Part shown: one piece after another, positions 2 through 18,373 of the stretch
Numbering within the stretch: the stretch's first letter is position 1
How the letters are laid out: each line of letters opens with the position of its first letter
Assembly (NCBI RefSeq): GCF_042679305.1
Contig: NZ_JBHTMP010000017.1
Location: 13,551-77,550 of the forward strand
Reading direction: 5' to 3'
From: Micromonospora sonneratiae
Lineage (GTDB): Bacteria; Actinomycetota; Actinomycetes; Mycobacteriales; Micromonosporaceae
DNA: 64,000 nucleotides
Notes under the pieces: generated by a model
What the model saw: only the letters and a program-made list of their open reading frames with translations
What the model was told of the DNA's origin: nothing
Databases searched by the model: none
Program-made: the position numbers and the translations under genes

Positions 2-2059
2 ATCGACCCGGTCATCGGCCGGGATGCCGAGATCCGTCGGGTCATCCAGGTGCTGTCCCGCCGTACCAAGAACAACCCGGTCCTGATCGGTGAGCCGGGC
101 GTGGGCAAGACCGCCATCGTCGAAGGCCTGGCCCAGCGCATCGTCGCCGGTGACGTGCCCGAGTCGCTGCGCGACAAGAAGCTGGTCTCGCTCGACCTCG
201 GCGCGATGGTGGCCGGCGCACAGTACCGGGGCCAGTTCGAGGAACGACTCAAGTCCGTACTGGAGGAGATCAAGAACTCGGACGGCCAGGTCATCACCTT
301 CCTCGACGAACTGCACACCGTCGTCGGTGCCGGCAAGGGCGAGGGCTCGATGGACGCCGGCAACATGCTCAAGCCGATGCTGGCCCGGGGCGAACTGCGG
401 ATGGTCGGCGCGACCACCCTCGACGAGTACCGCGAGCACATCGAGAAGGACCCGGCGCTGGAGCGCCGGTTCCAGCCGGTGCTGGTCGGGGAGCCGACCA
501 TCGAGGACACCATCGGCATCCTGCGCGGGCTCAAGGAACGCTACGAGGTCCACCACGGCGTACGCATCACCGACGCCGCCCTGGTCGCCGCCGCGTCGCT
601 CTCCGACCGCTACATCACCGACCGATTCCTGCCGGACAAGGCGATCGACCTGGTCGACGAGTCCGCCTCCCGGCTACGGATGGAGATCGACTCGCGTCCG
701 GTCGAGGTGGACGAGATCGAGCGGGCGGTACGCCGGCTGGAGATCGAGGAGATGGCGCTGGCCAAGGAACCGGACCCGGCCTCGGCGGAGCGGCTGACCC
801 GGTTGCGCAAGGAACTGGCCGACAAGCGGGAACAACTCACCGCGCTCAGCGACCGGTGGAAGCTGGAGAAGGACCACATCACCCGCATCTCCACCGCCAA
901 GGAGGAGCTGGAGCGGCTCGGTGGCGAGGCCGAGCGGGCGGAGCGCGACGGCGAACTGGAACGCGCCGCCGAGCTGCGCTACGGCCGGATCCCCGAGTTG
1001 CGGGCCGACCTCCAGCGGGCCGAGGCGGAACTAGCCGGCATCCAGGCCGACGGCGCGATGCTCAAGGAGGAGGTCGGGGCGGACGACATCGCCGCCGTGG
1101 TCGCCTCATGGACCGGCATCCCGGCCGGTCGGCTGATGGAGGGCGAGACTGCCAAGCTGCTGCGGATGGAGTCGTCCCTGGGAGCCCGGGTGATCGGGCA
1201 GGCCGAGGCCGTCGCCGCCGTCTCCGACGCGGTCCGGCGGGCGCGGGCCGGGGTCGCCGACCCGGACCGGCCCACCGGCAGCTTCCTCTTCCTCGGCCCC
1301 ACCGGGGTCGGGAAGACCGAGCTGGGCAAGGCGCTGGCCGAGTTCCTCTTCGACGACGAGCGGGCCATGGTCCGCATCGACATGAGCGAGTACGCCGAGA
1401 AGCACTCGGTGGCCCGGCTCGTCGGTGCCCCGCCCGGCTACGTCGGGTACGAGGAGGGCGGCCAGTTGACCGAGGCGGTACGCCGCCGGCCGTACTCGGT
1501 GATCCTGCTGGACGAGGTGGAGAAGGCCCACCCGGACGTCTTCGACGTGCTGCTGCAGGTCCTCGACGACGGTCGGCTCACCGACGGGCAGGGTCGTACG
1601 GTCGACTTCCGCAACGCGATCCTGATCCTGACCTCGAACCTCGGCTCGGCAGTGATCGCCGACCCCACCCTCTCCGACGAGCAGCGTCGGGACGCGGTGC
1701 TGGCGGTGGTGCGTTCCCACTTCAAGCCGGAGTTCCTCAACCGACTCGACGACATCGTGGTCTTCGCGGCGCTGACCGGTGAGGAGCTGCGTTCCATCGT
1801 GGACATCCAGATCGGTCGGATGCGTCGGCGGTTGGCCGACCGGCGGCTCACCCTGGACGTCTCCGACGATGCCCGCACCTGGCTGGCCGAGCACGGGTAC
1901 GACCCGATCTACGGTGCTCGGCCGCTGCGCCGGCTGGTGCAGTCGGCGATCGGCGACCGGCTGGCCAAGGCGCTGCTCTCCGGTGAGGTGCGTGACGGAG
2001 ACACGGTCCGGGTGGAGTTGGCCGACGGCAAGGACAGCCTGACGGTCGGCGCGGCCTGA
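2..2059 (+). CDS. clpB: ClpB AAA+ disaggregase, 5'-truncated by window edge
   Basis: Frame is open from nt 2 ([47 protein letters not shown]). NBD1 Walker A/B, coiled-coil middle domain, NBD2 Walker [20 protein letters not shown] and GARPLRR are present. Stop at 2057-2059. Confidence 0.96.
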
Positions 2060-2068
2060 TCGACGGAG

Positions 2069-2113
2069 CACCGGCGTACCTCGGTCCTGGTTCAGGGTCG
2101 AGGTACGCCGGTG
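2069..2113 (+). terminator. Terminator-like hairpin after clpB
   Basis: Perfect 15-bp inverted repeat CACCGGCGTACCTCG / CGAGGTACGCCGGTG with a 15-nt loop, starting 10 nt after the stop. No clear U-tract. Confidence 0.55.
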
Positions 2114-2144
2114 TCGCCATATCGCGGGTGTCGTCATATCACCG

Positions 2145-3164
2145 TTGGCGAATCAATCGGGCGATACCGAAGGTCCAACCAGGACGGTAGCGTCGGGCAC
2201 CGTGAGCCACTCCAATCCAGCGGCCCGGCCACCCCGGCCCTCCAATGTCACCCTCGCCGGCCACCTGCAACTCGCGGCCATGGTGTTGCTGCTGGTCAAC
2301 GTCGGTACACAGATCGCCGGAGCGATCCATTACGACGGCGTGATCGATCGGGCTGGTCGGCTGAGCAGGGTCGACCCGGAGTTGGTGTCGTTGGAGCACG
2401 GCGGCAACGTATTTACCACCGTCGTGGGTACGGTGCTGGCCACCCTGCTGGCGGTGGTGTTTGCGGCCTGCCTCGTGCCACTGCGCCGGGGCAGCAACGT
2501 GGCACGGATACTCATCCTCGTCGCTGCCGGTCTCATCCTGCTGGCCTGCCTCGGCCCGGTCGGGGCCGGCGCGCTGTTCCTGCCGATCGCCTTCATGGCC
2601 TCCCCTTTCCTGGCGGAGGAGCCCTGGTCGGACGTATCGACGCCCGGCGAGACCGAGGCACTGTCCAGGGAGGACGCGTTCTACGAGGCGTTGCTGGACC
2701 CGGCCACCGACCTGTTCCACCTCGGGGTCGGTGCCAGCGCGTTCATCGTTTTCGGTCTGATGGTGGCGGTCGCGGTGCTGGTGCTGCTGCCGTCGGCCAA
2801 CCGCTTCTTCGTACCCCGGCCGGAGGTGCCGGCGTTGCCATGGCCGATGCCGATGCCGATGCCGATGGCTGGCCAGGTCTACTACGGTCACCCGGGTACC
2901 CACTTCCCGCCGGCACATCCGCATCCACAGGGATATCCGTATGTGTTCGTGTACCCGGCCGGGTACTGGCCAGCCGGCGTACCGGGCATGCCAGCCGGCC
3001 CGCAGCCGGACTCGGTCGGCCCGACGGACCCGTCGGACTCGCCCTGGCAACCCGACCCGTCGGACCCGCCCAGCCAGCCGGAACCGGCCGCCCCTGCGAG
3101 CGGACCGGACTCGTCGGGATCCTCATCCTCGGGGGAGGCCTCACCACCGCCGTCCGCCAGCTGA
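2145..3164 (+). CDS. Polytopic membrane protein with Pro-rich C-terminal tail, function unknown
   Basis: Several hydrophobic helices (LQLAAMVLLLVNVGTQIAG, ILILVAAGLILLACLGPVGAGALFLPIAF), a PMPMPMPM run and a P/S/D-rich tail. Start uncertain (TTG 2145 or GTG 2202). Confidence 0.6.
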   Translation: MANQSGDTEGPTRTVASGTVSHSNPAARPPRPSNVTLAGHLQLAAMVLLLVNVGTQIAGAIHYDGVIDRAGRLSRVDPELVSLEHGGNVFTTVVGTVLATLLAVVFAACLVPLRRGSNVARILILVAAGLILLACLGPVGAGALFLPIAFMASPFLAEEPWSDVSTPGETEALSREDAFYEALLDPATDLFHLGVGASAFIVFGLMVAVAVLVLLPSANRFFVPRPEVPALPWPMPMPMPMAGQVYYGHPGTHFPPAHPHPQGYPYVFVYPAGYWPAGVPGMPAGPQPDSVGPTDPSDSPWQPDPSDPPSQPEPAAPASGPDSSGSSSSGEASPPPSAS

Positions 3165-3245
3165 CCTGGTCGACCCTTGCCGGGATGCGGCCGTGCACAC
3201 GTTTGTTACCGTCACCGGCCGATCGGGTTGGAGAGGACGGGGCGA

Positions 3246-3902
3246 ATGAACGGCACGCTGGCGTACGTCGTGGTCACGCTGAGTTGTCTTGTCGCGGTTG
3301 CCGGGGTGGTGGTGGCCGTCCTCGCCGTACGGGCGGCCCGGAAGAAGGCGGAGCAGGCCGCCAAGGCGACGAAGACGCCGGCCGACCCGTTCCGGTCCGC
3401 CGACGATGACGCCGACGCGCTGCGGGGGGATCCACGACGGCTACAGCCCGGCGACATCGTGGAGATCCGGCACACGTCGTACGGCGTGCGCGGCACACTA
3501 CGCTTCACCGAGGGGGACTGGAGCTGGACCGAGCACCTGCTCGACGACGCCGGTGGCACGAAGCGCTGGCTCTCCGTCGAGGAGGATCCCGACCTGGAGC
3601 TGGTGCTCTGGACCGAGGAGCCGGCAGCGACGGTGACCCCCGGCAAGCCCACCATCAACTTCGACGGGCGGCGCTTCACCCGCAAGGAGTCGGGCCGGGC
3701 CCGGTACACCGCCATCGGCACCACCGGGCTCAACCCGACCGGCACCGTGGCCTACCACGACTACACGGCCGGCGAGGCGCGGCTGTCGTTCGAGTCGTAC
3801 GGCGACAGCGGCAAGTGGGAGGTGGGCCGGGGCGAGCGGCTGCATCGGGCCGAGGTGCAGATCTACCCACAGGCCGGCCAACCTGGCAAGGTCATCAGCT
3901 GA
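3246..3902 (+). CDS. DUF4178-like protein with N-terminal TM anchor
   Basis: ATG 3246 follows GGAGAGGA. TM helix AYVVVTLSCLVAVAGVVVAVLAV, then GDIVEIRHTSYGVRGTLRFTEGDWSWTEHLLDDAGGTKRWLSVEED, which matches the DUF4178 pattern as I recall it. The stop overlaps the next start (TGATG). Confidence 0.75.
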   Translation: MNGTLAYVVVTLSCLVAVAGVVVAVLAVRAARKKAEQAAKATKTPADPFRSADDDADALRGDPRRLQPGDIVEIRHTSYGVRGTLRFTEGDWSWTEHLLDDAGGTKRWLSVEEDPDLELVLWTEEPAATVTPGKPTINFDGRRFTRKESGRARYTAIGTTGLNPTGTVAYHDYTAGEARLSFESYGDSGKWEVGRGERLHRAEVQIYPQAGQPGKVIS

Positions 3903-4474
3903 TGCTCGTCACCCTCGACGCCCCGTACGCCGACACCTCGGCCGCCGACCTCAGCTTCGCGCTCGAATCGGCCGAGCGGCCGGCCCTGTACGTGCTCGAC
4001 CTCGTCCTGCCTACGACGACGTCGGCCGACCCCGCAGGAAGCCAGCCCTCCGACCCCGCAGGGAGCCAGCCCTCCGGCGACGACGGGGTACGGCTGCGGC
4101 TGCGGCTGCTCGGGGCCTCACACCAGGTGACGGTGAGCGCCTCCGGTCTCGACTTCGTCGAGACTGTCGCCTGTCTGCCCGGTCGGCAACCCGACCTGCC
4201 CGCCACGGTGGAGGACGCCGCCACCGGCTACCGGTTCACCGCGCGGGTGCTGCGCCTGAACAGCGCGGAACTGGCCGCCCGGTCCGCCGCACTGCGACAG
4301 GAACTCGCCGACGACCCGTACGCGTTGGTCGGGGTCTTCCCCGGCGGGCCGGACGCGATCACCGCGTTGCAGGCCGGAGTCCATGCTGGGGCCGGGATCG
4401 GCTGGCGGACCTGGCATGCCTATCCACAAACCGGAGAACTCGTCGAAACCGAAACGACGGTGAGGATGCGATGA
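3902..4474 (+). CDS. Conserved hypothetical protein (DUF2617-like)
   Basis: ATG 3902 overlaps the upstream stop. Begins MLVTLDAPYADTSAADLSFAL. Contains an in-frame 24-bp tandem duplication (DPAGSQPS x2, 4028-4075). The family label is from memory. Confidence 0.6.
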   Translation: MLVTLDAPYADTSAADLSFALESAERPALYVLDLVLPTTTSADPAGSQPSDPAGSQPSGDDGVRLRLRLLGASHQVTVSASGLDFVETVACLPGRQPDLPATVEDAATGYRFTARVLRLNSAELAARSAALRQELADDPYALVGVFPGGPDAITALQAGVHAGAGIGWRTWHAYPQTGELVETETTVRMR

Positions 4475-4896
4475 CGTACCGCAGATGGTTCATCATAGGT
4501 GGGGTGTTTGCGCTGGTCGGAGCGCTGGTGGCGAGCTTCGCCATCTTCTACGGCAGCTTCTCACCGCGCGGCTATGTCAAGGATCGGTACACCCGGGCGG
4601 CGTCCCAGGACATCGGCCAGCAGGCCATGGCGTACACCTCCCGGAAGTCGCCCAGCGCGGTGGCCGCCGAGGTCACCAAGGCCTGGAAGCCCGCCGACCA
4701 GTACGTCGACGGCAGCGGCGTGTACCTGCGCTACGACGACGACTCGGTGGTGATCCTCCCGACCGCCGCCGGCTCGCTGATCCTGTTGGAACGGATGACG
4801 ACCGCCTACCCGCGCTACCGCAGCACCGTCGGTAACTCCTGGGGTTGGGGTCGGGGCACCACGGTCCGGGGCGGTGGCCCCGGCTCAGGCAAGTAG
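4471..4896 (+). CDS. Membrane-anchored protein (DUF4247-like)
   Basis: ATGA overlap with the upstream stop. N-terminal TM WFIIGGVFALVGALVASFAIFYG and a Gly-rich C-terminus. Confidence 0.65.
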   Translation: MTYRRWFIIGGVFALVGALVASFAIFYGSFSPRGYVKDRYTRAASQDIGQQAMAYTSRKSPSAVAAEVTKAWKPADQYVDGSGVYLRYDDDSVVILPTAAGSLILLERMTTAYPRYRSTVGNSWGWGRGTTVRGGGPGSGK

Positions 4897-4951
4897 TCCG
4901 GGCGGCAGCCCGTCACCCCCTCAACACCCCTCACCCTTGGAGTCGAAGTTG

Positions 4952-5371
4952 ATGACCCTCGCCACCGACCTGCTGGTCACCCTCGCGTACGGCGTGGTCG
5001 GCGTCCTGCTCATGGGGATCGGCTACGTCCTGGTCGACGTCGCCACCCCGGGCCGGCTACGGGAACTGATCTGGGTCGACCGGAACCGTAACGCCGCACT
5101 GTTGCTGGCCTCCAACCTGCTCGGCGTCGGCATCATCGTGGTCGCCGCCATCGTCAGCAGTGCGGACGACTTCGTCGCCGGGATCATCGGCAGCGCCGCG
5201 TACGGCATCCTCGGTCTGGTCATCATGTCCGCCGCGTTCCTGCTGCTCGACCTGGCCACCCCGGGCCGGCTGGGTGAGATCCTGGTCGACCCGGAGCCGC
5301 ACCCGGCGGTCTGGGTCTCCGCAGTGATCCACCTCGCCACCGGTGCCGTCGTCGCCGCGGCGATAAGTTGA
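4952..5371 (+). CDS. DUF350 (YjfL-like) integral membrane protein
   Basis: ATG 4952 follows GGAG. Two internal repeats each end in D(V/L)ATPGRL(R/G)E, typical of the DUF350 duplicated TM hairpin. Confidence 0.75.
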   Translation: MTLATDLLVTLAYGVVGVLLMGIGYVLVDVATPGRLRELIWVDRNRNAALLLASNLLGVGIIVVAAIVSSADDFVAGIIGSAAYGILGLVIMSAAFLLLDLATPGRLGEILVDPEPHPAVWVSAVIHLATGAVVAAAIS

Positions 5372-6198
5372 TGGCGGTCAAGAAGGGCGCTGCGGCGACG
5401 AAGGCCGCAGGCAAGAACGAGGGCTGGAAGGCCTTCGGCTGGATCATGGGCGTTACGGCGGCCATCATCGCCGGCATCCTCGTCTTCTCGGACACGGACA
5501 ACGACACCATGGTGCCCGCGCCGACCGCCACCGAGCGCACCGACACGGTCGCGATCCTCACCCGGGCCAGCCAGGCACAGAACATCTGCTACGGCTGGCA
5601 ACTGGAGGGCGGCTACCGCAGCGACGCGGTCAGCGTCGGCTCCAACCTCGGTGACAACGTGCCGGTCGACGAGGACCCGACCCGCTGCCCGCGCTGGATC
5701 CTGGTCACCGCCGACGTCAACTACACGTCGGAGAGCAGCGAGAGCAACGACTGGGTCTACGTCAACGTGAGAAGCTCCAGCGACCTTTCGACGATCGGCT
5801 TCACGGCCGGGTTGGAGCAGCTCGGGGTCGACGACGACGCCTTCCTCGACGAGCCGGGCTGGGCCATCACCCGGGCCGCCGTCTTCCTACCGCTGCTGGC
5901 GGCCGAGCATGGGCTGGCTGAGCCCGTACCGGTCGTCACGGCGGATCCCGACCCCACCGCGTCGGTTCCGCCGCTACCCGCCGCAGGCAACGACTTCCTG
6001 CGCGACCGCTGGGCCTACCTGCTCGGCGTGGCAGGCCTACTGCTCGTCACGGTGCTGTTCGTGACGATCGGACTGGTGCAGCGCCGGCGTCGGTCGGCCG
6101 AACTCGTCGCCGCCGAACGTCGTGCCGCGTTGATCGCCGAGCGGCGGGCCAGCCGTGCTGGCGGATCAACGTTCTCCCAGAGCAAACGGAAGAAATGA
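5371..6198 (+). CDS. Two-TM membrane protein, function unknown
   Basis: ATG 5371 overlaps the DUF350 stop (TGATG). N-terminal TM WIMGVTAAIIAGILVF, a central extracytoplasmic region, C-terminal TM LLGVAGLLLVTVLFVTIGLV and a basic tail. Confidence 0.65.
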   Translation: MAVKKGAAATKAAGKNEGWKAFGWIMGVTAAIIAGILVFSDTDNDTMVPAPTATERTDTVAILTRASQAQNICYGWQLEGGYRSDAVSVGSNLGDNVPVDEDPTRCPRWILVTADVNYTSESSESNDWVYVNVRSSSDLSTIGFTAGLEQLGVDDDAFLDEPGWAITRAAVFLPLLAAEHGLAEPVPVVTADPDPTASVPPLPAAGNDFLRDRWAYLLGVAGLLLVTVLFVTIGLVQRRRRSAELVAAERRAALIAERRASRAGGSTFSQSKRKK

Positions 6199-7778
6199 CC
6201 ACCACCACCTCACCCCCTGCCCCACCGACCGTCCCCCGCTGGCGGCTGGCCCGCGCCTCCGTACTGGTCGCGGTCTTCGTCTGTGCCGCCTGCGGGCTGG
6301 TCTACGAACTCGCCCTGGTCGCGCTCGGCAGCTACCTGATCGGCGACACGGTGGGGCAGGCCTCCATCGTGCTCGGCGTGATGGTCTTCGCGATGGGTGT
6401 CGGCGCGCTGGCCGCCAAACCCTTCCAGTCGAAGGCCGCTGCCGCGTTCGCGGCCGTGGAACTCACCCTCGCGTTGCTCGGCGGACTCTCCGTGCTCGGG
6501 CTCTACGCCGCCTTCGCCTGGCTCGACCTCTACGCCCCCGCGCTGGTCGCCACCGCGTTCGTACTCGGCCTGCTGATCGGTGCGGAGATTCCGCTGCTGA
6601 TGGTGCTCCTCCAGCGCATCCGTGAGCAGTCCGCCGGCAGCGCGGTCGCGGACCTGTTCGCCGCCGACTACGTCGGTGCCCTCCTCGGTGGGCTGGCCTT
6701 CCCGTTCCTGCTGATGCCCGTCTTCGGGCAACTACGCGGCGCGCTGGTCGTCGGCGCGGTGAACGCGATCGCCGGACTCGCCCTGGTCTTCACCGTCTTC
6801 CGGAAGGACCTGAGCCGCCGGGCACGTACCGTGCTCACCGCCGGCTCCGTCGTGGTCATGGTCTGCCTCGGGTACGCCTACGCGGTGGCGCACGACTTCG
6901 AGGTGACCGCACGTCAGCAGCTCTACCGTGATCCGGTGGTGCACGCCGAGCGCAGCCGCTACCAGGAGATCGTGCTGACCCGGTCGGTTCCGATGGTCTC
7001 GCAGGGCGTCACCGACCTGCGCCTCTACCTGAACGGGGACCTCCAGTTCAGCTCCGTCGACGAGTACCGCTACCACGAGGCGATCGTGCACCCGGTGCTG
7101 CGTGGCACCCGGGGATCGGTGCTGGTGCTCGGCGGTGGTGACGGGCTGGCCGTACGGGAGGTGCTGCGCTACCCCGACGTGAACTCGGTGACCGTGGTCG
7201 AGCTGGACCCGGCGGTGGTGCAGTTGGCCCGGACCGAGCCGCAGCTGCGCACCCTCAACCGTGGGGCGTTCGACGACCCCCGGGTACGCCTGGTGCACAC
7301 CGACGCCTTCGGCTGGCTGCGGGAGGTACGTGAGCGGTTCGACGCCGTCATCGTGGACCTGCCGGACCCGGACGAGACCGCCACCGCGAAGCTCTACTCG
7401 ATCGAGTTCTACACGCTGGTCCGGGCGGTGCTGGCCGACGGGGCGCGGATGGTGGTGCAGTCCGGCTCGCCCTACTTCGCGCCCCGGTCGTACTGGTGCA
7501 TCGAGCAGTCGATCCGTGCCGCCGGTTTCGCCACCACCCCGTACCACGTGGACGTGCCGTCCTTCGGCGACTGGGGCTTCCATCTCGCGAGCGCGGGTCC
7601 GGCCGCACCGGCGCTCGGCCTACCCGCCGACGTGCCGCAGTTGCGCTATCTCGACGCCGGCACGCTCGAAGCCGCCACCCACTTCCCGCCGGACCGGTCG
7701 CGGGTCGACGTGCCAGCCTCGACGCTGCTGCACCCCCGGGTGCTGGAGTTCGCCCGCGCCGAGTGGCGTAGCTACTGA
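6195..7778 (+). CDS. speE: Polyamine aminopropyltransferase (spermidine-synthase-like) fused to an N-terminal multi-TM domain
   Basis: ATGA overlap with the upstream gene. About 200 aa of TM helices precede the SpeE core: YQEIVLT, LYLNGDLQFSSVDEYRYHEAIVHPVL, VLVLGGGDGLAVREVL, VVELDP, VIVDLPDP. Architecture resembles mycobacterial membrane-type SpeE. Confidence 0.85.
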   Translation: MTTTTSPPAPPTVPRWRLARASVLVAVFVCAACGLVYELALVALGSYLIGDTVGQASIVLGVMVFAMGVGALAAKPFQSKAAAAFAAVELTLALLGGLSVLGLYAAFAWLDLYAPALVATAFVLGLLIGAEIPLLMVLLQRIREQSAGSAVADLFAADYVGALLGGLAFPFLLMPVFGQLRGALVVGAVNAIAGLALVFTVFRKDLSRRARTVLTAGSVVVMVCLGYAYAVAHDFEVTARQQLYRDPVVHAERSRYQEIVLTRSVPMVSQGVTDLRLYLNGDLQFSSVDEYRYHEAIVHPVLRGTRGSVLVLGGGDGLAVREVLRYPDVNSVTVVELDPAVVQLARTEPQLRTLNRGAFDDPRVRLVHTDAFGWLREVRERFDAVIVDLPDPDETATAKLYSIEFYTLVRAVLADGARMVVQSGSPYFAPRSYWCIEQSIRAAGFATTPYHVDVPSFGDWGFHLASAGPAAPALGLPADVPQLRYLDAGTLEAATHFPPDRSRVDVPASTLLHPRVLEFARAEWRSY

Positions 7779-7922
7779 CCTGCGTGTCATTACCACAACG
7801 ACGTGGTGGTTCGGGTCGTCACGCTAGCGACGTGCAGATACGGTGAGTTCTCGTCACAAGGGCAACATCAGAGGCAAGGGTCCGGCGGTCCGGTTGGCGG
7901 GCAGCCCTACGGAAGGAGCACC

Positions 7923-8678
7923 GTGTCGGTTCCGATGAGTCCGGTTGCGCCGGCGGGCGGGCAGCGCCCGGGCGTCGTCAGCATTTCCAGCTATCTACTT
8001 TTCCTGGTCGCCGGGTTGCAGGTGCTCGGGCTCATCATGGCGCTGATGGTGATGAGCACCTTCAACGAGGTCTACGAGGAGCTGTACGCCGGTACCGAGA
8101 TCGCCGATGCGGCCACCACGATCGCCACGATCACCCTGATCGGTACGTCGATCGTCAGCCTGCTCATCGCGGCGGGTCTGGTGCTGCTGGCCATCTTCAA
8201 CCTCAAGGGCAAGAACCCGTCCCGGATCGTGACCTGGGTCGTGGGCGGCATCTTCGTCTGCTGCTCCGGCTTCGGACTGCTGGGGTCGGCCGTCGGCGGC
8301 ATGATGCCCACGGAGACGGGTGGCACCACGACCGGGCCGGATCCGGCCGAGGTCCAGGAGGTCCTGTCCGACCGGCTGCCCGGCTTCTACGAGCCGCTCA
8401 GCCTCGCCATCAACGTGATTACGGTGATCGCGCTGCTGGTGTCGCTGATCCTGCTGGCCCTGCCCGCCGCCAACGAGTACTTCCGTAAGCCCCAGGCTGC
8501 CGGCTGGGAGCCGCCGGTACCGGGTGCCGCCTACCCGGGATACCCACAGGCGCAGCAGCCGTACCAGACCGAACAGCCGCCGTACCCGGGCCAGCAGCCG
8601 CCGTACCCCGGCGGGCAGCAGCCGCCGTACCCGGGTGGGCAGCAGCCGCCGTACCCGCCGGCACCGCCGGCGAGCTGA
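7923..8678 (+). CDS. Membrane protein with (Q)QPPYPG repeat tail
   Basis: GTG 7923 lies 6 nt after GGAAGGAG. Four TM helices. C-terminus reads QQPYQTEQPPYPGQQPPYPGGQQPPYPGGQQPPYPPAPPAS. Confidence 0.6.
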   Translation: MSVPMSPVAPAGGQRPGVVSISSYLLFLVAGLQVLGLIMALMVMSTFNEVYEELYAGTEIADAATTIATITLIGTSIVSLLIAAGLVLLAIFNLKGKNPSRIVTWVVGGIFVCCSGFGLLGSAVGGMMPTETGGTTTGPDPAEVQEVLSDRLPGFYEPLSLAINVITVIALLVSLILLALPAANEYFRKPQAAGWEPPVPGAAYPGYPQAQQPYQTEQPPYPGQQPPYPGGQQPPYPGGQQPPYPPAPPAS

Positions 8679-8700
8679 TCGCAAAAGGTAGATCGTCGCG

Positions 8701-8750
8701 GATCCCCCCGAGTAGGTTCCAGTATCCAGGGACACTCGGGGGGATCTTTC
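8701..8750 (+). terminator. Intrinsic terminator
   Basis: Perfect 13-bp stem GATCCCCCCGAGT / ACTCGGGGGGATC followed by TTTC, 22 nt after the stop at 8678. Confidence 0.6.
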
Positions 8751-8801
8751 AATTCGCGTATCCACCCCGGCCATCGACCGCGCCGACCTGAGGAGACCGC
8801 C

Positions 8802-9653
8802 GTGTCCACAGCGCCCGACCCGCACCGCGCCGATCCCGACCCGGCTGCGCCGTACCCGCCGTCGCCGGGTTCGGGACGACGGGCGATCATCACCGGGGCG
8901 ACGGCCGGGATCGGCGCGGCGTTCGCCCGGCGGCTGGCCCAGGACGGCTGTCGGCTCGTCCTCGTTGCCCGGGACGAGCAGCGGCTGGCCGAGTCGGCGG
9001 CGGAGCTGTCCGACCGCTACGGCGCTACGGTGACCGTGCTTCCGGCGGATCTGTCCACTGACGAAGGCTGTGCAGCGGTCGAGGAGCAGCTCCGCGAGCC
9101 GGTGGATCTGTTGGTCAACAACGCCGGCATCAGCCTCAACCGCTCGTTCCTGCGCTCGACCGTGGCGGACGAGACGCGGCTGCTGCGGCTCAACGTGCAC
9201 GCGGTCATGCGGCTGACCCTCGCCGTACTGCCCGGCATGGTCGATCGTCGACATGGGGCAGTGATAAATGTCTCTTCGGTTGCTGGCTTCGGCGCACTGA
9301 TGCCCGGATCGACCTACCCGGCCAGCAAGGCATGGGTGACAAATTTCAGCGAGTCGATGGCCCAGTCGGTACGACGCTACGGCGTACGGGTGATGGCGCT
9401 CTGCCCCGGCTACACCCGTACGGAGTTTCACGACCGGGCCGGCATCAACATGTCGAAGACGCCCGGGTGGATGTGGCTGCGGGCCGATGACGTGGTCCGG
9501 GATGCCCTACGTGACCTGGGGAAAGGCAAAATCGTCAGCGTTCCCGACTGGAAGTACAAGGTCGCCGTCTTCGGTATGCGGCACACGCCGGGCGGGCTGC
9601 TGCGGGCGGTCGGACGCAAGGGCCGGGGACGGCTCGGACGTGAGGAACGGTGA
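8802..9653 (+). CDS. Short-chain dehydrogenase/reductase (SDR)
   Basis: Cofactor motif ITGATAGIGAAF, NNAG, and catalytic S...YPASK. Confidence 0.85.
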   Translation: MSTAPDPHRADPDPAAPYPPSPGSGRRAIITGATAGIGAAFARRLAQDGCRLVLVARDEQRLAESAAELSDRYGATVTVLPADLSTDEGCAAVEEQLREPVDLLVNNAGISLNRSFLRSTVADETRLLRLNVHAVMRLTLAVLPGMVDRRHGAVINVSSVAGFGALMPGSTYPASKAWVTNFSESMAQSVRRYGVRVMALCPGYTRTEFHDRAGINMSKTPGWMWLRADDVVRDALRDLGKGKIVSVPDWKYKVAVFGMRHTPGGLLRAVGRKGRGRLGREER

Positions 9654-12523: not shown

Positions 12524-15070
12524 CTACAGCCGTGGATCGACCGGTTCCGACTCACAGGCGAGGATGGCGAAGACCAACTCGTGTCGACGCCACAGCGGAG
12601 CACCCTCCGCCAGGCGGTCCAGAGCCGCCAACCCGAGCCCGTGCTCACGTAGCGCCAGCCCTCGCTTACGGCCCAGGGACCGCTGCCGCAGCGCTGCGAG
12701 CTGCTCCGGTTCGGTGTACTCCGGCCCGTAGATGATCCGCAGGTACTCCCGCCCACGGCACTTCACACCCGGCTGGAGCAGTCGACCCTTCCCGTCGACC
12801 GCCGCCAGCCCGGCGTACGGCTTGACCACCATGCCCTCGCCCCCGGCCGCGGTCAGCTCCAGCCACCACTGCGTCGCCTCCGCCACCGCCGCGTCGTCGT
12901 CGAGGTCCACGATCCGGCGTCGGGTCGGAGTGAACAACGCGGGGTCGGCGTCGTGCAGCCGGTCCGCCATGGCCAGGTGCCAGCCGTGGTCCCGGCCCGC
13001 GTGGGATGCGCCCTGACTGGCGAGTACGGCGAATGGGGCGAGCGTCACACCGTCCAGCCCGTCCGTCGGTGCCACGTACGCCCGGTAGGCGGCGGTGTAA
13101 CCGGCCACGTCTGCCTGCCGGCGGGACATCCGGTCCCGCAGTCCGGTCACCGGCAGGCCACGCCCGGCCGCCCGGTCCAGCACCTCCAGTACGGCGGGCA
13201 GCGCGGCCCGGCTGGCCGCCCCGACACTGGCGTACTGGTCGCGGATGAGTCCCATCGCCTTCGCCGACCAGGGCAGCAACTCACAGTCGAGCAGCAGCCA
13301 GTCGGTGTCCAGTTCGGCCCAGAGGCCGGCAGTGGTCACGGCGGACCGGACCCGGGCCAGCAGTGCCTCGTCCAACGGGCTCCCGAAGAAAGGTCGTCCG
13401 GTACGGGTGTAGACCACCCCGCCACCCGGTACCGCATCCGCCCCGGCCAAATGACCGGTTTCCTCCCGGCAGACCAGAACCACCGCGCGGGAGCCCATGT
13501 GCTTCTCCTCGCAGACCACCCGATCCACGCCGGCCGCCCGGTAGTCGGCGAATGCCTGTGCCGGGTGCTCCAGGAACCCGTCGACGGTGGAGGTCGAGCA
13601 CGGTGCCATCGTCGGCGGCAGCCACGGCAGCCAGTGGGGGTCGACGGAGAACCGGCTCATCACCTCCAGTGCTGCCGCCGCGTTCTCCGCCGCGACCGTC
13701 ACCTTCCCGTAGCCGTAGTCGAGGTGCCGTCGTCCGGTCACGTCGGCGAGATCGAGTACGTCGTCCTGGCGTACCGGTTCGGCGGCGACGGGAACCAGCG
13801 GCCGGGCCGGCGGGTAGTACTCCTTCGCGGCCGGTACCGAGACGAGGTCGCGTTCCGGGTAGCGCAGGGCGGTCAGCGAACCACCGAAGACGCAGCCGGT
13901 GTCGATGCAGATCGTGTTGTTGACCCACTCCGGGGTCGGGGTCGGGGTGTGCCCGTAGACCACCATGGCACTGCCCCGGTAGTCGCGCGCCCACGGGTAG
14001 CGCACCGGCAGGCCGTACTCGTCGGTTTCGCCGGTGGTCTCCCCGAACAGCGCGAACGCCCGTACCCGCCCGGATGCCCGGCCCTGGTACTCCTCCTTGA
14101 GTCCGGCGTGCGCGACCACGAGCCGCCCGCCGTCGAGCAGGTAGTGGCTGACCAGACCGTCGATGAAGGTGGCCGCCTCGGCGACGAAGGCCGGCTCTTC
14201 GGCTTCGAGCTGGGCCAGTGTCTCGGCCAGGCCGTGCGACACCGTGACGTTGCGACCACGCAGCTTGCGCAGCAACTTCTGCTCGTGGTTGCCCGGCACG
14301 CAGATGGCGGTGCCGGCCGCGACCATCCCCATCACCAGGCGGAGCACGCCCGGCGAGTCCGGGCCGCGGTCGACCAGGTCTCCGACGAAGACCGCCGTAC
14401 GGCCGGCCGGGTGCGTCGCGCCGACCGGACGCCCGTCGGTGTCGGTGTGCAGCGTCCAGCCCAACCGGACCAGCAGTGCCTCCAGTTCAGCCCGGCAACC
14501 GTGCACGTCACCGATGATGTCGAACGGACCGGTCAGCTCCTTCCGGTCGTTGTACAGCTTCTCGTACCGGATCTCGACAGTGTCGATCTCCTCCGGGCCG
14601 CGCAGCACGTGTACCTTGCGGAACCCCTCCCGGCCCAGGCGGCCGATGGAGCGTTGCAGGTCGCGTCGCATCCGGCCGAGGACCTGGCGACCGAAGGTAC
14701 GGTCGGCCCGGCTCTGCGTACGCTCCCAGCACAGCGGCTCGGGTACGTCGAGCACGATCGCCACCGGGAGCACGTCGTGTCCCCGGGCGAGCTGGACCAG
14801 CCCGGCACGGGCGTGAGGTTGCAGGTTGGTGGCGTCGACGACGGTCAACCGGCCGGCCCGGAGCCGCTTACCGGCGACGTAGTGCAGCGCGTCGAACGCC
14901 TCCGCCGAGGCGGACTGGTCGTTCTCGTCGTCGGCCACCATGGCCCGGAACGCGTCGGACGAGAGCACCTGGGTGGGCGCGAAGTGCCGGCGGGCGAAGG
15001 TCGACTTGCCCGAGCCGGAGATGCCGACCAGGGCGACCAGGGCCAGTTCGGGAATGTCGATGCTGGTCAC
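12524..15070 (-). CDS. pnkp: Polynucleotide kinase-phosphatase with ligase domain (bacterial Pnkp, RNA repair)
   Basis: GTG 15070 overlaps the hen1 stop (GTGA). Kinase P-loop GISGSGKST. Metallophosphatase motifs GDVHGC, GDLVDRGP, GNHE. Adenylyltransferase lysine motif EEKHMGSR. The upstream 216 codons of the 1064-aa ORF overlap hen1 out of frame and are rejected. Confidence 0.9.
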   Translation of the reverse strand: MTSIDIPELALVALVGISGSGKSTFARRHFAPTQVLSSDAFRAMVADDENDQSASAEAFDALHYVAGKRLRAGRLTVVDATNLQPHARAGLVQLARGHDVLPVAIVLDVPEPLCWERTQSRADRTFGRQVLGRMRRDLQRSIGRLGREGFRKVHVLRGPEEIDTVEIRYEKLYNDRKELTGPFDIIGDVHGCRAELEALLVRLGWTLHTDTDGRPVGATHPAGRTAVFVGDLVDRGPDSPGVLRLVMGMVAAGTAICVPGNHEQKLLRKLRGRNVTVSHGLAETLAQLEAEEPAFVAEAATFIDGLVSHYLLDGGRLVVAHAGLKEEYQGRASGRVRAFALFGETTGETDEYGLPVRYPWARDYRGSAMVVYGHTPTPTPEWVNNTICIDTGCVFGGSLTALRYPERDLVSVPAAKEYYPPARPLVPVAAEPVRQDDVLDLADVTGRRHLDYGYGKVTVAAENAAAALEVMSRFSVDPHWLPWLPPTMAPCSTSTVDGFLEHPAQAFADYRAAGVDRVVCEEKHMGSRAVVLVCREETGHLAGADAVPGGGVVYTRTGRPFFGSPLDEALLARVRSAVTTAGLWAELDTDWLLLDCELLPWSAKAMGLIRDQYASVGAASRAALPAVLEVLDRAAGRGLPVTGLRDRMSRRQADVAGYTAAYRAYVAPTDGLDGVTLAPFAVLASQGASHAGRDHGWHLAMADRLHDADPALFTPTRRRIVDLDDDAAVAEATQWWLELTAAGGEGMVVKPYAGLAAVDGKGRLLQPGVKCRGREYLRIIYGPEYTEPEQLAALRQRSLGRKRGLALREHGLGLAALDRLAEGAPLWRRHELVFAILACESEPVDPRL

Positions 15071-16659
15071 AGCGATTCCTTTCCACGCGCTTCGGTGCCG
15101 CTGCCCGTCGGCGCCTGGGGGCCGTTGTCCGTCGGCGCCTGAGGCTGGTTGTCCGCCGGCGATTCGGCACCGCTGCCCGCCGTCGGCGTGCCGCTGCTGA
15201 TTCGGCTGAAGACGGCGAGTTGGCTGGAGCAGCCCACCTCGGGGTCGGCCTCCCCCACGCCGCTGATCGACACCGTGTAGCCGTACGTCCGGCCGACCTC
15301 GTGTGCCCAGTCGGCGAACTGGGCGCGGGCCCACTCGAAGCGGTGGTCGGTGTGCCGCATCGCCGTCGGGGCCAGCCCCTCGTACCGCACGTTGTATTCG
15401 ACGTTCGGCGTCGTCACGATCACCGTGGTCGGCTGGGCGTGACCGAAGACGGCACTGGCCAACGCCGGCAGCCTTGGCGGGTCGACATGCTCGATGACCT
15501 CCATCAGCACGGCGGCGTCGAAGCCGCGTAGCCGGTCGTCGCGGTAGGTCAGCGCCGACTGCCACAGCCTGATCCGGTCCCGCTGCCGTTGCGGCAGTCG
15601 GTCCAGGCGCAGCCGACGTTCGGCCACCGCCAGCGCCACCGAGGAGACGTCGGTACCGACGATCTCGGTGAAGCGTCGGTCGCGGATCAGGTCGGCCAGC
15701 AGTGACCCACCACCGCACCCCAGGTCGAGTACGCGGGATGCGCCGCTGTCGACCAGGGCCGCCAGTACGGCCGTCCGGCGCTGCGCCGCCAGCGGCTGCC
15801 GCCCGACCGTCGGTTCGGCGGTGTCTGGTTCGACCGTGTCCGCCGTCGGCAGTTCGTCCCGGGACCGGAGTTCGGTCAGCCGGAGTTCGGCCGCCTGGGC
15901 TTCGTTCAGTTGGGTGAGTGCCTTACCGGCCAGCGCCCGTCGATGGGCGAGGTACCGGCGGATGATCAGCGACCGCTCCGGGTGCCGGGCCAGCCAGCCC
16001 TCGCCGGCCCGGAGCAGCTTGTCGATCTCGTCGGGGGCGACCCAGTAGTGCTTGGCGTCGTCGAGCACGGGAAGCAGGACGTAGAGATGGTTGAGTGCGT
16101 CGGCGAGCCGTACCGAACCGGTCAGCTTGAGATCGACGTACCGGCTGGCACCCCAGGACGGATGCTGGTCGTCGAGCGGGATCGCCGTGGCGGAGACGGT
16201 CCAGCCCAGCGGGGTGAACAGCCGATCGGCCAGGTCCGCCCCGCCTCGGCAGCGGAGCACCGGTACGCCGATCTCCAGCGGAATGGGCGTGCCGGTCAAC
16301 TCCGGGCGGTCCTTCGACGTACCCCGCAGGGCGGACCGGAACACCTTGGCCAGCGCGGACGCCAGCAGGCTGGAGGCGGCGTACGGCCGGTCGTTGACGT
16401 ACTGGCCGAGGGTGAAGCCCTCGGGTGCCGTACCCCGGCCGTTGTCCCTGCCCCGGCCAGGAGCCAGCCGGAGCGGGTCGACGTCGAGCAGCAGGGCAGC
16501 GGTGCAACGCGCCTCGGTCGCTTCCGGATAGAACACATGGACGGTGCCGGTCGGCACGTCGAAGGAGTGCGTCCGGTCCGGGTGCTTGACCAGCAGATAG
16601 CCGAGGTCGGTGGCCGGCTGGTGGGTGGTGGAGACGGTGAGCAGCACGCCGGACATCAT
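15067..16659 (-). CDS. hen1: Bacterial Hen1, 3'-terminal RNA ribose 2'-O-methyltransferase
   Basis: Starts MMSGVLLTVSTTHQPATDLGYLLVKHPDR (Hen1 N-terminal domain). SAM-binding RVLDLGCGGGSLL and EVIEHVDPPRL. Low-complexity C-terminal tail. Confidence 0.9.
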   Translation of the reverse strand: MMSGVLLTVSTTHQPATDLGYLLVKHPDRTHSFDVPTGTVHVFYPEATEARCTAALLLDVDPLRLAPGRGRDNGRGTAPEGFTLGQYVNDRPYAASSLLASALAKVFRSALRGTSKDRPELTGTPIPLEIGVPVLRCRGGADLADRLFTPLGWTVSATAIPLDDQHPSWGASRYVDLKLTGSVRLADALNHLYVLLPVLDDAKHYWVAPDEIDKLLRAGEGWLARHPERSLIIRRYLAHRRALAGKALTQLNEAQAAELRLTELRSRDELPTADTVEPDTAEPTVGRQPLAAQRRTAVLAALVDSGASRVLDLGCGGGSLLADLIRDRRFTEIVGTDVSSVALAVAERRLRLDRLPQRQRDRIRLWQSALTYRDDRLRGFDAAVLMEVIEHVDPPRLPALASAVFGHAQPTTVIVTTPNVEYNVRYEGLAPTAMRHTDHRFEWARAQFADWAHEVGRTYGYTVSISGVGEADPEVGCSSQLAVFSRISSGTPTAGSGAESPADNQPQAPTDNGPQAPTGSGTEARGKESL

Positions 16660-16796
16660 GGCAGCCAGATCATCGATACGTCGTCCGTTTTCCCCGCTCC
16701 TTTCGTTGCGAACTGCCCGACCGGGTGATTCCACGGATCCGCAATGGTTGCCGGGGCTCGGTACGTCCAAGGAGGCGAGGACCTCTGGAGGTGTCC

Positions 16797-17276
16797 GTGA
16801 CGTACGAGGAGTTCGCCGACTCCCGACTGGCGGCGTTACTGCGGTACGCGGTGATGTTGACCGGTGATCCACACCTGGCCCAGGACCTGGTGCAGGAAAC
16901 GATGGTGCGGGTGCAGCTCAACTGGCGGCGGGTGGACCGGGCCGACTCACCCGAACGCTACGTACGCCGAATGCTGACGAACCAGTTCGTCGACTGGCGG
17001 CGGGGGTCCTGGGTCAGGCGGGTGCTGTTGCGGGCCGAGCCGGAGGAACTCGCCGTACCGACGGACCACGCCCAGACCACCGCGGACCGGGACCAACTCT
17101 GGTCCCAGCTGGCCCGGCTGCCGCGCCGGCAACGGGCGGCGTTGGTGCTGCGCTACTACGAGGACCTGCCCGATGCGGAGATCGCCGAGGTGCTCGGGTG
17201 CGCGGTCGGGACCGTGCGGTCCGCCATCTCCCGTGCGCTGGCCACGCTTCGCGCCGAACTAGTGGAGGCTTGCTGA
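16797..17276 (+). CDS. ECF (group 4) RNA polymerase sigma factor
   Basis: GTG 16797 follows GGAGG. Region 2 DLVQETMVRVQLNWRR. Region 4 RQRAALVLRYYEDLPDAEIAEVLGCAVGTVRSAISRAL. Confidence 0.85.
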   Translation: MTYEEFADSRLAALLRYAVMLTGDPHLAQDLVQETMVRVQLNWRRVDRADSPERYVRRMLTNQFVDWRRGSWVRRVLLRAEPEELAVPTDHAQTTADRDQLWSQLARLPRRQRAALVLRYYEDLPDAEIAEVLGCAVGTVRSAISRALATLRAELVEAC

Positions 17277-18373
17277 TGATCGAGGACGACCTGCGGGCCT
17301 CCTTTGCCCGACACGAGACGCTGACCCCGGATGCCGGCCCGGTACGGGACGCCATCAACAGCACAGCGGTACGTAGACGGCGGCGGCGGTTCGTGACCCG
17401 GATGGCCGGTGCTGCCGTGGCTGTTCTCGTGGCCGTGTCGATGCCGGTGTTGGGCCGTACGCTCATGGCGGCTCCGACCCCGGTGCCGGAGACGGTCGGC
17501 AGCGTGCCCACGGCGGACCCGTCGGCTGCCGCGCTTCCCGACTCCGCGTTGAACTTCCTGCTGATCGGCGTCGACGGGGAAGCGGGTGGCCGGGACGTCA
17601 GCGATCGCGCCGACTCGGTGTTGATCGTGCACGTGCCCCGGGACCGGAGCCGGATGTACCTGGTCTCGCTGCCCAGGGATCTGGGGGTGGAGATTCCTGG
17701 GCACGGCTTCGGCAAGCTGAATGCGGCGTTCTTCCACGGCAGCCACCGGCCGGGCACCAGGTCGGATCTACGGGGTGGAGCTCGCCTGACGGTCCAAACC
17801 GTGACCAACCTGACCGGACTCCGCTTCGACGGAAGTGCAACGCTGACCTTTTCCGGCTTACGTGGCATCACCGACGCTGTCGGCGGAGTCCGGCTGTGTC
17901 TGCCCAGGAAGGTGCAGTCGGTCCACACCAAGCGGGTCTTCCCGGCCGGCTGCCAGCAACTCGACGGCGCCGCCTCGCTGGACCTGCTCCGGCAGCGCTA
18001 CCGGTTGTCCGAGGGGGCGCATGAGCGGGACCGCAACGGTCAACGGTTCACCCGGGCGATACTGACGAAGGTGTCGCCGACGTCGGACGGACTCGATCTG
18101 GCCAGGTCGATGGCGATCCTTGCGGCGGTCGACGACGGGGTGGTGCTGGATACCGGCACCCTGCCCATGGCCGGTCTGTTCGCCGCCCTGCAACGGACGT
18201 CCACGGTCGATCCGGTGGGGATCGGCTGGACCTATCGGGCCGAGTCGAAGGACGGACAGATCTTCGAGCGGCTCGATCCGTTGGTGAGTGGCAGCCTGTT
18301 CGAGGCACTCCGCCGTGACACCCTCGCCGCCTGGACGGCGCAGCATCCGGCCCAGCTGACCAGGTGGCAGTAG
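17276..18373 (+). CDS. LytR-CpsA-Psr (LCP) family protein with anti-sigma-like N-terminus and TM anchor
   Basis: ATG overlaps the sigma stop (TGATG). MIEDDLRASFARHE...RRRRRRF, then TM AGAAVAVLVAVSMPVLG, then LCP core NFLLIGVDG...RADSVLIVHVPRD...LVSLPRDL...GKLNAAF. Confidence 0.85.
   Translation: MIEDDLRASFARHETLTPDAGPVRDAINSTAVRRRRRRFVTRMAGAAVAVLVAVSMPVLGRTLMAAPTPVPETVGSVPTADPSAAALPDSALNFLLIGVDGEAGGRDVSDRADSVLIVHVPRDRSRMYLVSLPRDLGVEIPGHGFGKLNAAFFHGSHRPGTRSDLRGGARLTVQTVTNLTGLRFDGSATLTFSGLRGITDAVGGVRLCLPRKVQSVHTKRVFPAGCQQLDGAASLDLLRQRYRLSEGAHERDRNGQRFTRAILTKVSPTSDGLDLARSMAILAAVDDGVVLDTGTLPMAGLFAALQRTSTVDPVGIGWTYRAESKDGQIFERLDPLVSGSLFEALRRDTLAAWTAQHPAQLTRWQ

Follow-up and report, generated by a model that had tools for sequence, protein, structure and literature searches.

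An Rv2597-Rv2601-type operon with a membrane-fused aminopropyltransferase and a TPM-like sixth gene in Micromonospora sonneratiae

The 64,000-nt stretch of Micromonospora sonneratiae DNA analysed here (contig NZ_JBHTMP010000017.1, positions 13,551 to 77,550 of the forward strand; hereafter the window) carries at 3246-7778 a block of six genes, which we call g1 to g6, the last of them encoding an aminopropyltransferase fused to seven transmembrane (TM) helices. We take this block to be the M. sonneratiae copy of a conserved actinobacterial operon, of the type represented by Rv2597-Rv2601 in Mycobacterium tuberculosis, that would carry out aminopropyl transfer at the membrane for a purpose other than spermidine synthesis and would have a role in the envelope; we put the probability of this reading at about 0.6. 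The Rv2597-Rv2601 type is a PspA-less variant of the published modules that combine a membrane-fused spermidine synthase (SpdSyn) with DUF350. Both the cluster and the link between DUF350 and polyamines are already in the literature, and the window, a variant with a TPM-like sixth gene, chiefly offers a well-annotated example of a system already known. The present analysis contributes the g5 family with its TPM fold, the observation that g5 pairs with DUF350, the finding that the catalytic site is invariant, and a topology signal of unusual clarity. Membrane-fused SpeE proteins are widespread, with at least 426 relatives in a genome scan and M. tuberculosis Rv2601 as a member of the family. 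Annotation routinely labels them spermidine synthases, although according to published work the bacterial members make no polyamines. The co-inherited partners, including a TPM-fold family, the intact catalytic site and the outward topology signal narrow the experiments that are needed.

Six tightly coupled genes correspond to the mycobacterial Rv2597-Rv2601 operon

An earlier reading of this sequence (the original prediction) had described six coupled genes on the + strand, and all six open reading frames (ORFs) are present. Profile searches with Pfam and NCBIfam bore out every domain that had been proposed for them. The products of the first four genes are a DUF4178 protein (g1, 3246..3902, 218 aa; PF13785, E 1.6e-35), a DUF2617 protein (g2, 3902..4474, 190 aa; PF10936, E 5.5e-48), a DUF4247 protein (g3, 4471..4896, 141 aa; PF14042, E 1.4e-19) and a DUF350 protein of the YjfL family (g4, 4952..5371, 139 aa; PF03994, E 3.8e-26). 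The fifth gene (g5, 5371..6198, 275 aa) matches no Pfam family, and hydropathy gives its unclassified product the two TM segments that had been claimed. The sixth (g6, 6195..7778, 527 aa) encodes the 7TM-fused aminopropyltransferase and scores 687.4 bits against the NCBIfam equivalog NF002956/PRK03612, for which the cutoff is 472.

In this region of ~70% G+C, the four predicted overlaps can be read directly in the sequence, as TGATG at 3900-3904, ATGA at 4471-4474, TGATG at 5369-5373 and ATGA at 6195-6198. Between g3 and g4, where no overlap had been claimed, lies a 55-nt gap (4897-4951) with a GGAG at 4939-4942, 9 nt 5´ of the g4 ATG. The junction spacing is kept in related loci: g2 and g3 overlap by 4 nt in 75/79, g4 and g5 by 1 nt in 65/70 and g5 and g6 by 4 nt in 57/70, the g1/g2 spacing ranges from -1 to +4 nt, and g3 and g4 are separated by a gap, of ~30-40 nt, in every locus. 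The six genes form one tightly coupled unit, with a geometry that points to co-transcription.

The proposed parallel with mycobacteria holds. The tables of the EXIT export-reporter screen list Rv2597, Rv2598, Rv2599, Rv2600 and Rv2601 (speE) in a row, with the labels membrane protein (Rv2597), hypothetical (Rv2598), conserved membrane protein (Rv2599, the DUF4247 protein) and integral membrane protein (Rv2600). The M. tuberculosis genes have the same order as those of the window, DUF4178, DUF2617, DUF4247, DUF350 and membrane-fused SpeE, and encode proteins of similar sizes; the window differs in having the extra TPM-like g5 between DUF350 and speE, where the M. tuberculosis gene list has none. 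The features of the Rv2597-Rv2601 type found here are a leading DUF4178 gene, DUF2617 and DUF4247 in the place of CesT/Tir-PspA, DUF350 and a terminal 7TM-SpdSyn fusion.

Operons of this kind were described by Ravi et al. (2024, mSystems 9:e00847-23), who reported an operon that combines PspA with a 7TM-SpdSyn fusion, DUF350 and DUF4178, a yjf-type operon with a GspS-like ligase, and variants free of PspA where DUF4247 and DUF2617 stand in for the CesT/Tir-PspA dyad. M. tuberculosis accessions are their DUF4247 and DUF2617 examples of the PspA-free variants, and they propose that polyamines or aminopropylation are linked to membrane dynamics. The proteobacterial CesT/Tir-PspA operon of that study shares a membrane-fused SpdSyn-like enzyme, DUF350 and DUF4178 with the window. 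No PspA, CesT/Tir chaperone, Ctha_1186 lipoprotein or S-adenosylmethionine decarboxylase (AdoMetDC) was found in the block or in the ORFs examined within ~25 kb. The MFS-SpdSyn/AdoMetDC/DUF350 clusters (Li et al., 2019) are of a related kind; the window carries DUF2617, DUF4247 and g5 instead.

The comparison with E. coli was likewise sound as annotation: the operon reads yjfI-yjfJ (PspA family)-yjfK-yjfL (DUF350)-yjfM-yjfC (peptide--spermidine ligase), as had been stated. The abstract of the 2019 study by Li and colleagues is also said to place DUF350 in clusters both with membrane SpdSyn fusions and with GspS-like ligases. As in the window, a four-TM DUF350 protein, a polyamine-handling enzyme and small envelope proteins occur together in yjfIJKLMC. 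The enzymes differ, however, YjfC being an ATP-grasp peptide-spermidine ligase, a name now given to it after Pederick et al. (2023), and the window enzyme an aminopropyltransferase. By profile comparison, g4 aligned with YjfL (hhalign E 0.009 over 95 columns), and no homology of g1, g2, g3 or g5 to YjfI, YjfJ, YjfK, YjfM or YjfC was detectable. Against YjfJ, g1-g5 gave hhalign probabilities of at most 0.1%, and the block holds no PspA/IM30 gene; a GspS-like ATP-grasp ligase was not found in the block or in the neighbouring ORFs examined. The PspA (YjfJ), DUF2170, DUF2491 and DUF1190 proteins of the E. coli operon have no detectable counterparts in the window operon. The recurrent association of DUF350 with polyamine enzymes, which the original prediction had emphasised, stands, but it was already reported by Ravi et al. 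(2024), and DUF350 is all that the E. coli operon shares with this one.

The block is inherited as a unit with an accessory g5

A genome scan anchored on g6 found the relatives mentioned above, and the best 80 loci, all from Micromonosporaceae, were kept; the best 120 protein homologues likewise all came from this family. Three of the 80 loci were contig ends, leaving 77 informative Micromonosporaceae loci with upstream DNA. Among these, g1, g2, g3 and g4 were each present in 77/77 and g5 in 71/77. The view beyond Micromonosporaceae comes from six loci reached by a g5 profile search, together with the literature. In these six the arrangement is DUF4178-(DUF2617)-DUF4247-g5-like-DUF350-SpeE, with unrelated flanking genes in each and DUF2617 present in three; the three that we name are from Amycolatopsis and Actinophytocola (Pseudonocardiaceae). 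The recurrence of the arrangement exceeds chance.

The genes are co-conserved as a block independent of their flanks, as judged by the 77 loci and by the six distant ones, but DUF2617 is gone from three of the latter and g5 is accessory, so that the core consists of four to five genes rather than six, with g5 limited to some lineages. The place of g5 also differs, after DUF4247 in the six distant loci and after DUF350 in Micromonosporaceae. The six loci that lack it are all from Micromonospora (M. saelicesensis, M. noduli and M. arida among them), and there speE follows DUF350 after ~90-130 nt. In two other Micromonospora genomes the pair of DUF350 and g5 is duplicated in tandem (L043, 5420-7980; L046, 5528-7980), in the order g1-g2-g3-g4-g5-g4´-g5´-g6. 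The duplicated DUF350 copies are near-identical over the N-terminal residues compared, and the g5 copies each share only 47-52% identity with g5 of the window. Judged by this duplication, DUF350 and g5 behave as a unit. Across the loci, g5 is a recurrent but dispensable member of the operon.

g6 retains a complete aminopropyltransferase active site

The g6 protein consists of a seven-TM domain by hydropathy (residues 21-233, 6255..6893) and, directly after it, a SpeE-type catalytic domain delimited by alignment with E. coli SpeE (residues 238-527, 6906..7775), within which Pfam Spermine_synth matches residues 291-467 (E 3.7e-35). The canonical soluble E. coli SpeE aligns over the full length of the catalytic domain, and all of its donor- and amine-binding motifs are kept in g6: LxG..Q....DE..YHE..H, GGGDG, the ribose-binding acidic residue, the adenine-binding Asp and the catalytic DxxDP. 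The corresponding g6 elements are Q257, Q284, YHE (293-295), GGGDG (D316), D370 and DLPDP (D388, D391, P392). In 84 homologues these motifs are invariant but for one E/D exchange, with D316 present in 84/84. The Asp of GxGDG separates aminopropyltransferases, which use decarboxylated S-adenosylmethionine (dcAdoMet), from S-adenosylmethionine (SAM) methyltransferases of the same fold (Nat Commun 2023;14:4202). Given this residue and the invariant catalytic site, the chemistry of g6 is almost certainly aminopropyl transfer. Unlike E. coli SpeE, g6 is fused to seven TM helices and is encoded in a non-metabolic operon of membrane proteins; E. coli speE adjoins speD, and g6 does not.

Bacterial membrane-aminopropyltransferase (APT) fusion proteins have been reported, in literature citing Li et al. 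(2019), not to be involved in spermidine or spermine synthesis, and on this ground the acceptor of g6 is most likely not putrescine. We propose that g6 would most likely move the aminopropyl group of dcAdoMet to a different acceptor at the membrane, the candidates being envelope proteins, head groups of lipids or components of the wall. DUF350, paired in this lineage with g5, and the single-pass proteins might serve as partners for substrate handling or as a scaffold, and the system as a whole would serve to modify the cell envelope or to monitor it, and not to provide polyamines in bulk.

Several points weigh against this proposal. Co-transcription of the six genes is read from their geometry. 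Neither in the window nor in the fetched loci did tblastn find an AdoMetDC, which leaves the supply of the dcAdoMet donor unexplained. NCBIfam also assigns g6 to its polyamine aminopropyltransferase equivalog, and Rv2601 is still referred to as the spermidine synthase of M. tuberculosis in a 2025 paper in J Bacteriol. The last two points, the former with its score of 687 bits, together with the complete catalytic site, are what would be expected if g6 were an ordinary membrane-anchored spermidine or spermine synthase making free polyamines, with neighbours that are accessory or unrelated. We nevertheless regard this as distinctly improbable. It conflicts with the published statement on the bacterial fusions, and a housekeeping enzyme would hardly be expected to stay strictly linked, across families, to four or five membrane proteins that are not metabolic. 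There are also no putrescine-forming or AdoMetDC genes nearby: tblastn of the window and the fetched loci detected neither PspA nor polyamine genes, and Pfam found none among the ten ORFs downstream of the operon, a span of ~25 kb that is free of polyamine biosynthetic genes by this search.

To two further readings we give less credence still. One is that the SpeE-like domain is a sensor that binds polyamine or dcAdoMet and signals the state of the envelope to its partners, in line with the phrase "monitors polyamine concentration" of Ravi et al. (2024). The lack of a nearby AdoMetDC would fit, but none of the catalytic residues, the general-base Asp of DxxDP among them, varies in the 84 homologues, which is the pattern of an active enzyme, and the conserved block has no output domain or regulator; a sensor role is accordingly quite implausible. 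The other is that the DUF2617 protein g2 is a cryptic, AdoMetDC-like pyruvoyl decarboxylase supplying dcAdoMet to g6, which would account for the seeming absence of canonical speD/speH genes near the operon. The search for speD/speH covered the window and the fetched loci. Foldseek of g2 against the Protein Data Bank (PDB) returned nothing significant and no AdoMetDC among the 50 best hits, a g2 profile had no match among PDB sequences, and hhalign against class 1b sequences gave a probability of 0.2% with a coincidence of only seven residues. DUF2617 is, moreover, missing from 3/6 of the distant operons, and we consider a decarboxylase activity of g2 very improbable indeed.

Charge distribution predicts an outward-facing catalytic domain in g6

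The TM domain of g6 has an absolute positive-inside bias. The N-terminus and loops 2-3, 4-5 and 6-7 together hold a mean of 11.9 Lys and Arg residues (range 7-16) in the 84 homologues, and loops 1-2, 3-4 and 5-6 hold none in 84/84. This bias, with seven TM helices, would place the catalytic domain outside the cytoplasm. We lean slightly towards this orientation, which export-reporter data from M. tuberculosis do not confirm. In the EXIT screen, Rv2599 (DUF4247) was scored as exported in vivo, with the BlaTEM reporter at residues 108, 129 and 136, and Rv2601 was not in the exported list although the input contained 35 reporter fusions in the correct frame, of which 16 lay in the catalytic domain, at residues 241-495. 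Rv2597, for which the input contained 14 such fusions, was not scored as exported, and Rv2598 and Rv2600 are also missing from the list. The negative result for Rv2601 is weak because the reporter plasmid was promoterless, and the fifth gene of an operon would need a long insert to be expressed from it.

An outward orientation would allow the catalytic domain to aminopropylate exported proteins, at the N-terminus or at lysines, or amines of the wall or lipids, with a mass shift of +57.058 Da. The 7TM domain, possibly with DUF350, would pass dcAdoMet across the membrane, and the DUF4247 and TPM-like proteins would be substrates or adaptors. In this case g6 would be the bacterial counterpart of the fungal N-terminal histidine methyltransferase NHMT (Aspergillus nidulans AN4663; Nat Commun 2023;14:4202), a protein resident in the endoplasmic reticulum (ER) that methylates the N-terminal His of secreted lytic polysaccharide monooxygenases. 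Its TM domain is required for activity, and its substrates are proteins already processed by signal peptidase (Nat Commun 2023;14:4202). Its catalytic domain probably faces the ER lumen, because the substrate exists only after signal-peptide cleavage. NHMT is likened to g6 by architecture: an N-terminal 7TM domain of ~215-235 residues is followed by a domain of the spermidine synthase (SpdS) fold, and the overall length is similar. The motifs differ, with GxGIG (Ile322) and SAM as the methyl donor in NHMT and GGGDG, the aminopropyltransferase signature, in g6. The use of dcAdoMet by g6 gains support from this comparison, since NHMT, with the same architecture, uses SAM and has Ile for that Asp.

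The bias in 84/84 sequences, the shared architecture and ER residence of NHMT with its need for the TM domain, and the outward-facing domains of two operon partners (g3 and g5) all favour external aminopropylation. So does the report that bacterial fusions are the only non-fungal homologues of the fungal membrane-APT fusions, of which NHMT is presumably one. That orthology is, however, our own reading, TM7 of g6 could be an interfacial helix, and the EXIT data separate Rv2601 from the exported Rv2599, an objection weakened by the promoterless plasmid. No precedent for the use of dcAdoMet outside the cytoplasm is known to us. External aminopropylation is therefore a tentative possibility that we judge unlikely; if true, it would be a previously unknown extracytoplasmic modification.

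The partner proteins are predicted on both faces of the membrane

Returning to membrane-associated aminopropyl transfer to an acceptor other than putrescine, which we favour, the operon products are predicted to lie on both membrane faces, with DUF4178 and DUF2617 on the cytoplasmic side, DUF4247 and the TPM-like g5 domain outside, and DUF350 and the 7TM domain integral. For g1, hydropathy indicates one N-terminal TM helix (residues 8-26), a K/R-rich stretch and then a beta-rich domain, an order from which the domain is predicted to be cytoplasmic. The g3 protein has a predicted N-in signal-anchor (residues 7-25, by hydropathy), an extracytoplasmic domain and a Gly-rich tail. The four TM segments of g4, also from hydropathy, form an internal 2 x 2TM repeat that is detected by BLAST as well (E 5e-8), and the motif D(V/L)ATPGRL occurs in both predicted cytoplasmic loops.

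The g2 protein is soluble, with no TM segment by hydropathy, and is a putative cytoplasmic enzyme; D11, S73, H74, E87, H172, E179 and E184 are invariant in the alignment of its homologues. Its AlphaFold2 (AF2) model has a pLDDT of 80, with most of the core above 90, and neither profile comparison with PDB sequences nor Foldseek against the PDB gave a convincing solved relative. A 24-nt tandem duplication within g2 (4026..4076, +; Tandem Repeats Finder (TRF) period 24, 2.1 copies, 96% matches) encodes DPAGSQPS twice in perfect register, in a loop of variable length where the pLDDT is ~60. The insertion is missing from most g2 homologues and looks like recent slippage in a tolerant loop.

By hydropathy, the order in g5 is TM1, an acidic extracytoplasmic domain of ~178 aa, TM2 and a basic cytoplasmic helix. 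The external domain, which has two invariant cysteines (C73 and C106), has a TPM-like fold (~residues 50-180, 5518..5910, +). The closest known proteins are those with TPM domains, TLP18.3/Psb32, BA41, the Rhom172_1776 TPM and the mycobacterial DUF5130 supercomplex subunit, from which g5 differs by the additional N-terminal TM segment and the two invariant cysteines. The TPM profile PF04536 (TLP18.3/Psb32/MOLO-1) did not match g5 even at E 10, and no PDB chain matched by sequence. A word-based search found g5 in Micromonosporaceae only, with 100% identity to a hypothetical protein of M. sonneratiae. With a profile, 263 of 1.84 billion cluster representatives were recovered at E <= 1e-3, and 229 at E <= 1e-10, with members in Dactylosporangium, Amycolatopsis and Actinophytocola. 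By this measure g5 founds an unclassified family of 263 cluster representatives. We also noted that the g5-like proteins of four loci outside Micromonosporaceae are longer, at 337-421 aa, and that in at least one of them, from Amycolatopsis albispora (L082, 8001-9194), TM2 is followed by a low-complexity tail of collagen-like Gly-X-Y composition.

A conserved box precedes the operon

In an alignment of the 170 nt upstream of g1 from 81 loci, the box TTGTTACCGTC (3203..3213, +), ~35-45 nt 5´ of the g1 start, is conserved at 90% or more and the surrounding DNA is not. The box is a candidate promoter or operator element and suggests that the operon has its own control region. A Shine-Dalgarno-like GGAGAGGA at 3230-3237 precedes g1. 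Scans for a sigma-70 consensus and for intrinsic terminators gave no promoter-like or terminator-like site inside or beside the block, and nothing real was found for riboswitches or other Rfam RNA elements across 2000-9000. Upstream of the box, GGGAT-N18-GTT resembles a SigR/SigH-type promoter (GGAAT-N18-GTT); the -35 part is not conserved.

Genes flanking the operon

The ten downstream ORFs examined with Pfam have housekeeping or unrelated functions: phosphoribosyltransferase, ArsR, VTT/DedA, Pnkp, an extracytoplasmic function (ECF) sigma factor with a LytR-CpsA-Psr (LCP) protein, a holin-like protein, FBA, PurA and PurD. On the other side, ClpB (50-2059, cut by the window start) lies upstream of the operon on the same strand, as it does in Solwaraspora. 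Loci outside Micromonosporaceae have other upstream genes, so that the ClpB linkage is specific to this lineage.

Directly on both sides of the operon, at 2145-3164 and 7803-8678, are genes for four-TM membrane proteins that resemble each other in TM spacing and end in Pro-rich tails; paralogy of the two was not established (BLASTP E 0.027). The downstream protein is syntenic in 73/84 loci, and its gene contains 21-24-nt tandem repeats (8553-8657) that encode QQPPYPGG-like units. Farther downstream, a bacterial RNA repair enzyme of the Pnkp type is encoded at 12524-15718 (-); its 1064 aa include kinase, metallophosphatase and PNKP-ligase domains, and a gene for a Hen1 partner may be its neighbour. 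Finally, at 16725-18373, ~9 kb from the operon, the ECF-type sigma factor gene overlaps the start of the gene for the LCP cell-wall ligase, and the two may be an envelope-related regulatory pair.

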